A stretch of 64,000 bases of DNA. Source: Octopus vulgaris. Taxonomy: Eukaryota. Position numbers and translations under genes: made by a program. A model generated the notes under the pieces. It worked only from the letters and a program-made list of their open reading frames with translations, was not told where the DNA came from and made no database searches. Shown here piece after piece: positions 5,921 to 63,450 of the stretch (position 1 is the stretch's first letter; each line of letters begins with the position of its first letter). The stretch is from assembly GCA_951406725.2 (NCBI GenBank), contig OX597815.1:209932001-209996000 (forward strand). Reading direction: 5' to 3'.

Positions 5921-5963
5921 TTTTTGATAAGGTTCGTTTTTTCAAGAACCGAAACATGTAAAA
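5921..5963 (+). ncRNA. Minimal type I hammerhead ribozyme, U3-A8 core variant
   Basis: TTT-TTGATAA-GGTTC(10 nt loop)GAACC-GAAA-CATG-TA-AAA: 5-bp stem II, palindromic stem III ACATGT, GUA site, short stem I; inside a ~95-bp insert between two (TA)n tracts. Confidence 0.65.
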
Positions 5964-7117
5964 TTTAAATTTATCTAATATAGTGGCGTTTTCAAACTTC
6001 TTTTTTACAAGTATATATATATATACATGTCTTTTATCTGTTAATTGTTCCCCTTACTATGACTACGGTCATGCTAGGCTACAGCCTTGAATTTTTAGCC
6101 GAATGAATCGCCCCCAGTTGTCAACCAGGGCCGAATAAATCCCCCCTGGTTGTCAAGCAGTGATGGGGGACAAATACAGACACAAAGACACACTTCTAAA
6201 TTGAAGTATTTGAACTGAGAACACAAAGATTTTTAACAGATTCTGCAAGGGACTGTGTATGGATCTTTAACACGTCTAGCATTCTACTTATTTGGAATGT
6301 TCCTTCATTCATTGATCAGGAACGAATGAAGAGCAAAATTTGTCTCATTCAGACTTGTCTAATATCATTTAGTAGTATATTCTGATCACATCAATTAAGA
6401 CAGGTACGCCCTATTTGAAATATCTATTATTTACCTTCATCATTTGACAACTGATGGATTATCTAAGGAAAAAAACATGGGATTCCGGAACATTTAACTA
6501 CTTGTGTGCTCGTATGGATTTATATCAATAAAATCTGTTTTACTAGGAATGGTGTAAAGATTCCAGTAGTAATATATTCAGTAAATAATAATATTTTATA
6601 ACCTTAAAGCTTATAAGCGATCACCATGTATTAACTAAAGGAAAGACCTCGATGGAATAAAATGGTCCTTCCGTACGCGTAGGAAACGATCTCTTACCGT
6701 CATACATTAATGATAAGTGTACTACCACTACACCAACATACCCATTCAGTTCTTCCTGTTAGAGTTAAGAACTATAATTTCATAATGCTATTTTTTAAAA
6801 CAAAGAGACATGCGCGTCTTCTGTGATGATTTGAGAAGAGGTACCGAGTGACGATTATGTAAATAATAATAATATTTTATAAGCTTAAAGTTGTTAAGTA
6901 TCACTGTGTCTTGACTCAAGAAATTAATCTAATATGGGGGTATATAAGCCCTCGATATATATTTACAATTCGTTTTTTGGAGAACGAGAGAAGATGAATA
7001 ACGTTTCTAAAGGCGGGTCATTAACATAGAGTTAGAGAACTGTTTTATATCGAATTTGAATCTCATCTCATAATTGTCCTCAGACTAAAGGTATTTCCGT
7101 TTTTTATTTCGTGGTTT

Positions 7118-7521
7118 ACTCTTTACTCTTTACTCTTTTACTTGTTTCAGTCATTTGACTGCGGCCATGCTGGGGCACCGCCTTTAGTCGAGCAACTCGA
7201 CCTCGGGACTTATTCTTTTGTAAGCCCAGTACTTATTCTATCGGTCTCTATTGCCGAACCACTAAGTAACGGGGACATAAACACACCAGCATCGGTTGTC
7301 AAGCAATGCTAGAGGGACAAACACAGACACACAAACATATACACACACTTACATATATATACATACATACGACAGGCCTCTTTCAGTTTCCGTCTACGAA
7401 ATCCACTCACAAGGCTTTGGTCGACCCGAGGCTATAGTAGAAGACACTTACTCAAGGTGCCACGCAGTGGGACTGAACCCGGAACCATGTGGCTGGCAAA
7501 CAATCTACTTACCACACAGCC
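7118..7521 (-). mobile_element. SINE family A
   Basis: Homologous to 329-764; (ACTCTTT)n tail on + strand. Confidence 0.9.
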
Positions 7522-7699
7522 TAATGTGAAAATACGGATAACTTGGCACAATTTTTAACATATGTATTGTGGTAGTTTTTATTGCATCTCTTAGTAACTC
7601 TTAAGACACTCACTTATCATGAATCATCCAAGATATTTTGACCAAGCAGACGCACTTACATACTTACCTACCTTGACAATATTAGCAATCTAAATATGG

Positions 7700-8036
7700 A
7701 GAATTTTAGTCGAATATATCGACCTCAGAACTTTTGAATTTTTAAGCCTGGTACATATTCTATCGGACGTTTTTGCCAAACCGTTACGTCACGGGAACAT
7801 GAGCGCACTAACAGTATTGTTAAATGGAGGTGGGCGAGGAACACACTCTCACACATCTATCTATATATATATAGTCGACGGATGTCTTTCAGTTTCCCTC
7901 TACCAAATCCATTCACAAGGCCTTGGTCGCCCCAATTCTATAATAAAAGACACTTGTCCAAGGTGCTAAGCAGTGGGACTGAACCCGGAACCATGTGGTT
8001 GGGAAGCAAACTTCTTACCACGCAGTCACTCCTGCG
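7700..8036 (-). mobile_element. SINE family A, older diverged copy
   Basis: Head GCAGGAGTGACTGCGTGGTAAGAAGTTTGC and diverged body. Confidence 0.8.
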
Positions 8037-60439: not shown

Positions 60440-61629
60440 AAATATATATGCACTGTCACTCATTCTCTAAAACTAAGCTTAAGAACTCAGCCTTTCTGGT
60501 AGATTACATCCTCTAAAATCCAAACTTAGAAGGAGTAATATGTACATCTTACATTTAGCTTGGCTGAAACAAGTATATCCGAAAGTATATGTCGGGGAAC
60601 ACTTGAAGTGTTAAGGACTTATCGTAACTTATAAAGCAAAAAAAAAAAAAAAAAAAAGAAATGAAAAAGGGAAATGATTTTTGCGTTTCAATTCGGATAT
60701 CAATTCTCTTAAAGATTAAGTTATTATACGTTGCAAAATAATCCTTTTATCTATTGAAAATATTAACGTAATAACATTGAAAATAATAACAAGTGTGTTG
60801 TCATAAGATTATTCTGTATACTGCTTGCGTTAATTTTGATTAATTTTAATTATAACTGTATCACCATTATCACATCATAAATCTGCATTAAGAATGTAAC
60901 AGCGTTAGTAATTTAACAAAATTAAGATATGAATTACATTTCCTATTACGCTTCATTACTGTCATTAGTTGTCTGTTCATTAAGAATTCTTAATACTTAT
61001 TTTATATGTTTAAGTCATATTAACGTCTGCTAAATAGACACAATAAACAGAGTGAAAAGAGTGTGTGTGTGTGTGTGTGTGTGTGCGTGTGTGCGTGTGT
61101 GCGTGTGTGTGTGTGTGTGTGTGTGTGCGTGCGTGCGTGTGTATAAATTGTTTGAAGTGATGTACAGGTTTATATGTTATGGAAAACGGGTGGTCAGAAT
61201 TTTGGACAATTCTTTATTAGCGCTTTCGCATTATTCACGGAGACTCTTTTGATACAGACGCAACACGGACTACGTTTTGAGGATTTTTGAATAAATTCTT
61301 CAGAAGTAACTCAGTAACTTTACCATTAATTCCATGAAATATTCACGGGTCTCACTGGTTATAATTATATTGTTGCTGCGTCATCCCAGTGCAGCTCTGT
61401 ACAATGTCGTAAAACTGCTGCTGCATGTTGGAATCCCTGTATGTACCCGACATAATAAAATAGGAGCTTGTATATGCGAACTCAAAAACGTTTATCGAAA
61501 ACAAAATTAAAGGATATATATGTACACACACACGCAAATATATAAATATACATACATATGTATATAGGTTATGAGAGGTGATAAATATAAGACATTGAGA
61601 TAGATAAAAAAAATCTATATAAAGGGTAC

Positions 61630-62085
61630 GGAGGAGTGGCTGTGTGGTAAGTAGCTTGCTTACGAACCATATGTTTCCGGGTTCAGTCCTACTGCGTGGC
61701 ACCATGGGCAAGTGTCTTCTGCTATAGCCTCGGGCCGACCAAAGCCTTCTGAGTGGATTTGGTAGACGGAAACTGAAAGAAGCATGTCGTATATATTTGT
61801 ATATATATATATATATATATATATATATATATATATATATGCGTGTGTGTGCGTGTGCGTTTGTTTGTGTATCTGTGTTTGTCCTCCCAACATCGCTTGG
61901 CAACCGATGCTCGTGTGTTTACGTCCCCGTCAATTAGCGGTTCGGCAAGAGAACCGATAGAATAAGTACTCGGCTTACAAAGAATAAGTCCTGGAGTCGA
62001 TTTGCTCGACTAAAGGCGGTGTTCCAGCATGGCCGCAGTCAAATGACTGAAACAAATAAAAGAAAAAAAGAAAAAAGAAAAATAC
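61630..62085 (+). mobile_element. SINE family A
   Basis: Head GGAGTGGCTGTGTGGTAAGTAGC to tail GACTGAAACAAATAAAAG; A-rich end. Confidence 0.9.
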
Positions 62086-62602
62086 AAGCAACATAGGAAG
62101 CGAACCCACATACACACACGAACACACAGTAACTTCACAGACGGTCGCAACAGTATCAACGACAAGACTAACAACGACAGCAGCAACAGTGGTGACATAT
62201 ATGGCAATAACAACTCCACGACGGCGAACACATACACAAACACAAAGATACAGGAACTTACTAAATTTCGTGTCCTCGAAGAGCAGCGGTAACAATGGGG
62301 GACGCAAACGGGTAACAAACGCGGACGCAAACGCATGCGCATATAAGGATACACGTCATAGAAGGACAGAATGAAATAAGTGGAGCAGGAGCAAACTCGG
62401 AGACTGAAAGTGTCACTGAAGAGGTCAAAGATGTGTGACGAAAGATTTCCAATGGGCATGAGTTAGAATAAGAACAGTAATAGACGAGTGAAGAACGAAT
62501 ATATAGTGTATATGTTTATTCGGCAAAAAAGTGACCGTCCCGAAATACAACAATATCTGTTTCACCACACGATATCACATCAGGAGTATTGCAACAAAAT
62601 TC

Positions 62603-62888
62603 ATATATATATATATATATATATATATATATATATATATATATATATATATATATATATATATATAACTTATATATATATATACATATATATATAAACT
62701 TATATATATATACAAATATATATATATATATATATATATATATATAAACTTATATATATATATATATACATATATATATATAAACTTATATATATATACA
62801 TATATATATATATATGTATATATATAAGGTTATATATATATATATTTATATATATATATATATATATATATATATATATATGTATATA
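62603..62888. repeat. Compound (TA)n with recurring AACTT/AAACTT interruptions
   Basis: Seen directly. Confidence 0.9.
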
Positions 62889-63450
62889 AGAAATTAAAAA
62901 AGGAAAATACGCACATTTACATGGTTTTAATATAATTTTTAATATATCGACCGGTTTCGCAATCGCTATTCATGATATAATGTTTAATTTTTATGAATAT
63001 ATATTTTTTTCTTAAGAAGAAATTTGGTCCATGTTGTTTGTAATGAAATTCACGAGTGAATGACTTTACAACTTGTCAAGTAAAGGGAGGTAATTGGTTG
63101 TTATTATTGTTATTGTTGTGTGTAAGGGAGATAAGTATTTAGGTTTTGGGTGGGGAATAAATATATGTACAGAAAGGAGACAGATTTAAAAAAAAGGGAC
63201 CTTGTTTAGTAGGGGATTTATGTACAGTGATGTAATATGTAAAATTATAAAAGTTGGTTATGCGTGCTTATTAAGACGCGTTTTGTATTTTTCAATGAAA
63301 AAAGTTTCTTTATTTAAACGTTCTAGTTGAGAGATTGTGTCTTTGCACTGGTAGAAAGGGAAGACTGTAAAATTTGGTTTGATGTTACCTGCACATTTTT
63401 CTATGTGCACCACGACGTGGGGACAACTGAAATTCTTCTTTTCTGTTACT
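62889..63450 (-). mobile_element. PLE 3' end: GIY-YIG C-terminus, 3' UTR and HHR, in (TA)n
   Basis: VHIEKCAGNIKPNFTVFPFYQCK..RLNKETFFIEKYKTRLN* (stop at 63258), similar to the 54.1 kb relic; HHR ~280 nt downstream. Confidence 0.78.
62943..62979 (-). ncRNA. Minimal type I hammerhead, A3-U8 core variant
   Basis: TATATC-ATGAATA-GC(GATT)GC-GAAA-CCGG-TC-GATATA: perfect 6-bp stem I, 2-bp stem II, palindromic ACCGGT, GUC site. Confidence 0.65.

Follow-up and report, generated by a model that had tools for sequence, protein, structure and literature searches.

Pairing of core positions 3 and 8 in varied letters among type I hammerhead motifs of Penelope-like elements in Octopus vulgaris

A stretch of 64,000 nucleotides from the Octopus vulgaris genome (hereafter the window; G000:C2:209,932,001-209,996,000, in an assembly of 2.8 Gb and 227 contigs) contains seven motifs that resemble the type I hammerhead ribozyme. 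The C3-G8 pair, nearly invariant in the catalytic core, places the general acid of this best-studied ribozyme, and the 3-8 pair holds the 2'-OH of G8 in place. In the motifs described here the pair is C-G, U-A, A-U or G-C according to the repeat family, and all four Watson-Crick pairs occur at 3-8 in this one genome. Our reading, to which we give a probability of about 0.72, is that these are type I hammerhead motifs, found mostly at the pseudo-long terminal repeat (pLTR) ends of Penelope-like elements (PLEs), with a predicted cut after H17, likely as dimers. The pair itself, and not its letters, is likely what selection keeps, and the pairing would point to selection for cleavage. These observations extend a phenomenon that is already half known and do not define a new class of ribozyme.

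Results

Pairing at positions 3 and 8 was assessed over the whole genome with the pattern N3-TGAN-N8-AG-N{4,20}-CGAAACNNGTH, which describes a short stem II closed by G10.1-C11.1 and a 6-nt C..G stem III. The pattern was run four times, each time with a reversed-pattern control, and returned 9,401 matches for Y3-R8 (control 240) and 1,766 for R3-Y8 (control 151) against 295 for R3-R8 (control 238) and 207 for Y3-Y8 (control 152), that is, an odds ratio for pairing of 272 in the genome and of 1.0 in the control. The covariation of positions 3 and 8 that the initial annotation of the window had proposed thus stands above the control background. Pair types were counted by eye in the first 100 rows of each run, which are sorted by place and not random: the Y3-R8 rows comprised 76 U-A, 12 U.G, 9 C-G and 3 C.A, and the R3-Y8 rows 86 A-U, 8 G-C, 4 A.C and 2 G.U. 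Extrapolated from these rows, the genome would hold about 7,100 U-A, 1,100 U.G, 850 C-G, 1,500 A-U and 140 G-C matches, and roughly 10,000 matches of this one pattern class would not be C3-G8, in line with the hidden population of ribozyme motifs that had been anticipated. Inside each 3-8 state N7 is free to vary. An apparent U3.U8 family (15 of the 100 Y3-Y8 rows listed) was rejected: in 4/4 copies fetched, one of them with a core deletion, the pattern had matched a C3-G8 family out of register.

A stricter descriptor, which leaves positions 3 and 8 free, was applied to a blind sample of 400 kb of genomic stretches, all architectures included. All six matches were paired at 3-8 (five C-G, one G-C), and eight shuffles gave 1.6 matches each, 0.4 of them paired. 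In a survey of 993 kb made up of the loci fetched for comparison (numbered L) and the window, 21 of 25 clusters were Watson-Crick at 3-8 and four otherwise; among clusters with a G10.1 pair the figure was 13/13, against 0/8 such matches in ten shuffles. Four of these 13 clusters are sites of the initial annotation and nine were found blind (eight C-G, one G-C).

In the window, a Watson-Crick 3-8 pair accompanies U4, G5, A6, A9, GAAA and an NUH triplet at 7/7 sites, which are named here by the position of their core heptamer. The literal CUGANGA core is found only at 21672 and 44961 and is absent at 5924, 45576/45722, 56089 and 62973. All seven heptamers lie where they were first placed, but the strand given for 45722 was wrong, TTGAGAA being there on the + strand. 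Sites 45722 (+) and 45576 (-) are the two arms of a single inverted repeat (45330-45967), so the seven sites represent six independent families. The type I folds claimed for all of them are clean (stem I, a stem II with G10.1:Y11.1, GAAA, a palindromic stem III, the NUH triplet and a Watson-Crick 3-8 pair) at 5924, 56089 and 62973, which the strict descriptor recovers together with one weak additional site at 24519, and show defects at 21672, 44961 and 45576/45722. The match at 24519 (+; ACGAGTA, of A3-U8 type, with an ACGT stem III and no G10.1 pair) may be due to chance.

The U3-A8 motif TTGATAA (5924; 5921-5963, +) combines a 5-bp stem II, an ACATGT stem III and a GUA site (H17 = 5960) with a weak stem I of 3 bp, and it sits in a short PLE 3'-end fragment next to (TA)n. 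The second U3-A8 motif, TTGAAAA (56089; 56081-56128, +), forms 7/8 pairs in stem I and has an ACCGGT stem III and a GUA site (H17 = 56120). The A3-U8 motif ATGAATA (62973; 62943-62979, -) has a 6-bp stem I, a 2-bp stem II with a 4-nt loop, an ACCGGT stem III and a GUC site (H17 = 62949). The canonical C3-G8 motif CTGATGA (21672; 21664-21720, +; H17 = 21712) belongs to an older repeat with inverted ends (about 21400-21870); a 4-bp hairpin whose loop is nearly palindromic serves as its stem III, and its stem I mismatch is private to this copy and absent from the family, which passes the fold criteria. The C3-G8 hammerhead-like motif CTGACGA (44961; 44901-44969, -) lies in a repeat with inverted ends (44600-45320) and has a GUU site (H17 = 44909) and an A.A mismatch at 10.1/11.1, at the base of stem II; in its relative L183 stem II is paired and the site is GUA. 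The U3-A8 hammerhead-like twins TTGAGAA at 45576 (left arm; 45505-45581, -; 12-nt palindromic stem III, GUC site, H17 = 45510) and 45722 (45717-45793, +; H17 = 45788) carry an A.C mismatch at 10.1/11.1, where their family has A.A, and belong to a U3 subclade of a mostly C3-G8 family. The two unrelated families at 44901-44969 and 45505-45793 thus both have A.A or A.C at 10.1/11.1 above a paired stem II.

Every window site lies in a dispersed repeat, which in most cases runs out into (TA)n; first-look candidates number 206 to 1,579 per family. One may ask whether the variants reflect no more than the decay of single copies or chance matching, as would fit the existence of single-mismatch decay copies and the Rfam scan of the window, in which no hammerhead family, not even for the canonical 21672 motif, was among 122 matches at E<=5. 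Since best-hit family lists favour states like that of the query, the family test was redone with a pattern leaving 3 and 8 free: over the whole genome, 98/100 matches of the 62973 family were A3-U8, one was G3.U8 and one A3.A8. The 5924 family was U3-A8 in 33/33 copies among its best hits, and for the 56089 family the first 31 Mb of contig C1 contain 23 rows with U3-A8 intact, compared with six mismatched rows in about 1,000 Mb. Individual decay, which the initial annotation had named among the findings that would overturn it, is excluded for these three families, whose variant pairs are family traits. With shuffles and reversed-pattern controls flat as well, decay or chance has hardly any prospect of explaining the motifs.

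The two positions change together between homologous elements as they do genome-wide and at family level. When elements were compared with the core masked, C-G (L231) and U-A (L232) elements were 88% identical over 320-330 nt, U.G (L229) and U-A (L244) elements 92% identical over 190 nt, and G-C (L218) and A-U (L222) elements 78% identical over 525 nt. Only pairwise identities were used from this comparison, because the tree of the first cluster contained a duplicate, mis-registered row (L243, A.G) and that of the second mixed two elements joined via L228. A second comparison of homologous elements gave similar swaps. In a tree of 11 rows, the five with A-U group on a single branch (98/98), away from the five with G-C and the one with G.U. 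The tree of the 45722 family was built from 24/30 loci, three overlapping duplicates having been skipped and the rest lost for insufficient coverage or a core that could not be parsed. It sets a single branch of six U3 rows, four of them U-A and two U.G (100/100), apart from the remaining 18, of which 15 are C-G. Finally, in a midpoint-rooted tree of 21 endonuclease fragments, seven A3-U8 rows join a U3-A8 family (100/98), the A3-U8 grouping by itself being weak (63/36). Taken together, these trees and identities suggest about five independent 3-8 changes, each ending in a Watson-Crick or G.U pair.

As selection would act on a few master lineages, the evidence amounts to about five swaps and not to thousands of copies. 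This leads to another possible explanation, a founder effect, in which a few masters with a paired 3-8 by luck were amplified and their copy numbers inflate the covariation: the copies cannot be counted as independent, only those five or so swaps are present in the trees, and a U3.G8 family exists. Yet every swap between homologues ends in a Watson-Crick or G.U pair, the lone apparent U.U family turned out to be the mis-registered C3-G8 match described above, and the blind clusters with a G10.1 pair are Watson-Crick in 9/9 cases, so that we regard luck of this kind as quite improbable. The U3.G8 wobble core is fixed in loci L228-L230 (7 of the first 100 Y3-R8 rows listed), about 90% identical to a U3-A8 family; its G8 lies in a CpG, and deamination may therefore drive G8 to A. 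In the 45722 family (L070-L090) and in L248-L251, many copies have C at position 4 (CCGA for CUGA). This is the majority state in the 45722 family, including most of the 18 non-U3 rows of its tree, and C4 is possibly another tolerated core variant.

The G3-C8 state was encountered outside the window, in a motif from the blind sample (L176) with a 7-bp stem I, a 5-bp stem II and an AATATT stem III. In this family 40/40 scored matches, among 1,460 candidates, are 100% identical over 151 nt, which indicates that the family is very young. One copy lies in the element L213:3204-8582 (G000:C4:22,955,803-22,961,181), and further copies lie at L176:8285, L212, L214 and L149:826; L212 is a 5.3-kb inverted repeat with 99.9% identity. 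In L213 the motif is within 1.1-kb direct repeats (98%), accompanied by an inverted truncated copy, and a frame of 777 open amino acids, apparently frameshifted at both ends, carries reverse transcriptase (RT) motifs and C-terminal GIY-YIG motifs. A search of its protein against Pfam and PDB gave no match; its Atlas neighbours at 0.95-0.97 carry RVT_1, GIY-YIG and HTH_animal, and it is about 25% identical to other PLE proteins. On the strength of the visible RT/GIY-YIG motifs, of these neighbours and of the 25% identity to PLE fragments, L213 is taken as a Penelope-like element, and its cysteine-rich linker, compared by eye with the available part of PMC8557442, suggests a place in the Neptune clade. 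With only about 25% identity between this PLE and the others, G3-C8 would have arisen at least twice. Four sequencing runs (organisms A-D) have contigs across the G3-C8 region, and an identical core is seen in loose ends from X1, X13, X16 and X19, contigs being unable to show cleavage ends.

Queries for PLE genes upstream of the motifs were taken from the 62973, 56089 and 5924 families, against a background of PLE matches in 5/40 blind 10-kb stretches. A PLE frame lies upstream, in the sense of the motif, at 9/30 loci of the 62973 family, 8/30 of the 56089 family and 6/30 of the 5924 family, and four of these frames match Pfam GIY-YIG with E 9e-6 to 7.5e-4, one of them above the curated cut-off. 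In the window itself, about 290 nt upstream of the A3-U8 motif and on the same strand, a remnant of the GIY-YIG endonuclease end of a PLE (63261-63407, -) is 86% identical by tblastn (E 3.5e-20) to the L020 protein, whose own match to Pfam GIY-YIG (E 7.5e-4) falls short of the curated cut-off. The link to PLEs drawn in the initial annotation is thus confirmed for the three non-canonical window families with good stems (5924, 56089 and 62973), which lie 3' of Penelope GIY-YIG genes; the PLE setting holds for the U3-A8 (5924, 56089), A3-U8 and G3-C8 families. The inverted-repeat element between (TA)n tracts at 45330-45967, which holds the 45576/45722 twins, has the form expected where a truncated copy lies inverted beside a PLE 3' end, an arrangement described in the available parts of PMC8557442 and PMC4209133. 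The decayed remains of a PLE RT/endonuclease, with 59% identity to the L050 protein, were also noted at 54022-54642 (-), and locus L211 (G000:C3:5,615,300-5,620,700) has two A3-U8 repeats of about 850 nt (97%) in direct orientation, 4.47 kb apart, with no open frame of 150 amino acids between them.

Discussion

We favour the view that the active fold would depend on the 3-8 pair and that this accounts for its retention. The papers cited here by number were available in part, and what we say of them refers to those parts. C3 and G8 pair in the active hammerhead fold, and in the catalytically active conformation only (PMC3884650), and PLE hammerheads have a short palindromic stem III and likely act as dimers (PMC4209133; PMC6765202). 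In the anole PLE hammerhead, which cleaves only with protein, either of the mutations C3G and G8C alone puts an end to cleavage, which returns in part when the two are combined (PMC11167929). Short palindromic stems III are likewise present in the octopus motifs (ACATGT, ACCGGT, AATATT and the 12-nt palindrome). The element RNA would be cut after H17, likely as a dimer through the palindromic stem III, and master elements would need a paired 3-8 to process tandem transcripts, possibly slowly and with protein help. Most genomic copies would then be dead 3'-end fragments, selection having acted on few master elements. Swaps inside the pyrimidine-purine or the purine-pyrimidine states would pass through G.U wobbles; going from U-A to A-U would require a mismatched intermediate, which could be tolerated in a ribozyme that is in part dispensable.

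Several observations weigh against this scenario. The passage from U-A to A-U takes two transversions via a mismatch, the 10.1/11.1 pair is mismatched in two window families, and the G3-C8 family has a UUU cleavage site, a poor cleavage triplet. Minimum-free-energy folding, as monomer or dimer, gave no hammerhead fold for 5924, 21672 and 62973; co-folding lowered the energy in 8/8 motifs tested, mostly without the active dimer fold. PLE genes were found beside only 1/30 loci of the 45722 family, 0/25 of the 44961 family and 1/25 of the 21672 family, with queries that came from other families. C3-G8 accounts for 5/6 of the strict matches in the blind 400 kb, so that over all architectures the canonical core probably remains the most frequent, and a non-canonical share of perhaps a quarter to a third would be hidden. 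As to published experiments, minimal PLE hammerheads are weak cleavers in vitro (PMC4209133), PLE insertion in vitro is independent of cleavage (PMC11167929), and when positions of a type III hammerhead were mutated in pairs, the G:C swap alone rescued activity, other double mutants in this region being low (PMC9901934), a result unfavourable to active A3-U8 and U3-A8 cores in such a setting.

The 3-8 pair might instead be kept for RNA folding or for binding of a PLE protein, the A3-U8 and G3-C8 motifs cleaving little or not at all. Such a role would accommodate the hammerhead mutants that leave insertion in vitro unaffected and the protein requirement of the anole ribozyme (PMC11167929), the rescue by G:C alone (PMC9901934), and the Naiad PLEs, which thrive without canonical hammerheads (PMC8557442). 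It is harder to reconcile with a 3-8 pair that forms only in the catalytically active conformation (PMC3884650) and with G5, A6, A9, GAAA and the H17 rule, which in the families examined are as in active ribozymes, their constancy being partly built in by descriptors that demanded these letters. We therefore judge it unlikely, and still the more serious of the competing explanations, and retain putative cleavage of the PLE RNA as the better account of the pairing.

Natural covariation of C3-G8 to U3-A8 has already been published by Perreault et al. 2011 (PMC3088659), in text that, in its available part, names U3-A8 only and no pair with a purine at 3, whereas A3-U8 and G3-C8 occur here too. 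Cervera and de la Pena 2014 (PMC4209133) recorded about 1,300 matches of U3-A8 PLE hammerheads in Schistosoma mansoni. The octopus motifs share with their minimal PLE type I hammerheads the pLTR location, the palindromic stem III, G10.1-C11.1, the U3-A8 variant and the occurrence both solo and as opposite-strand pairs 100-700 bp apart. The accessible part of their alignment has C-G and U-A rows and one U3.G8 row (Saccoglossus), with no purine at 3 and hence neither A3-U8 nor G3-C8; in the octopus, unlike that set, U3-A8 outnumbers C3-G8 in the class with a 6-nt stem III, and four Watson-Crick pairs with traceable swaps are found. Non-LTR retrozymes (PMC7229834; bioRxiv 10.64898/2026.07.22.740005) consist of tandem 350-360-nt type I repeats, as described in the parts available. 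Retrozyme-like tandem repeats of 353-361 nt with type I hammerheads were likewise noted here at L231 (G000:C1:20,002,900-20,003,900; C3-G8) and L234 (G000:C1:8,134,200-8,135,200), the latter U3-A8. By contrast, the window motifs are solo or inverted PLE-end fragments, and no tandem array, that is, no head-to-tail monomers of the retrozyme kind, spans any of the seven. In the laboratory, the C3G/G8C swap (Martick and Scott 2006, cited in PMC11167929 and PMC8495972; PMC9901934) partly rescues activity as G3-C8. That G3-C8 is an engineered mutant, whereas the G3-C8 described here is a natural, recently amplified family; in the literature searched, itself incomplete, we met with no natural A3-U8 or G3-C8 family, only with the laboratory mutant.

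That the pair can be exchanged was thus known from mutants and from natural U3-A8. If our reading is true, fixed A3-U8 and G3-C8 families with G.U intermediates would mean that evolution keeps the pair and not the letters, and these families would offer a ready series of wild-type, mismatch and rescue forms bearing on whether PLE hammerheads need cleavage. Standard searches would miss the variant cores, and ribozyme surveys would be better served by an N3:N8 descriptor. A bolder proposal, which we advance tentatively and at somewhat less than even odds, is that the octopus genome represents a natural saturation experiment, in which actively spreading Penelope lineages place every one of the four Watson-Crick pairs, and G.U as well, at 3-8. 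A3-U8 (about 1,500 copies) and G3-C8 would be among these states, and all would cleave as dimers. Surveys based on CUGANGA would then have overlooked a large part of the hammerheads of animals and may have mis-scored some PLE clades as ribozyme-free.

Other features of the window

The window is 35% GC, with abundant microsatellites and repeats. An open frame of 104 amino acids over the 44961 motif (44734-45045, -) was considered as an exon and rejected as part of a host gene, since it has no Pfam match and lies inside a repeat with 1,313 first-look candidates. Open frames at 28325-30374 (+) resemble the remnant of a long interspersed nuclear element, and tandem copies of a unit of 183-184 nt, resembling a short interspersed nuclear element, occupy 11673-12039, 18115-18667 and 32079-32446.

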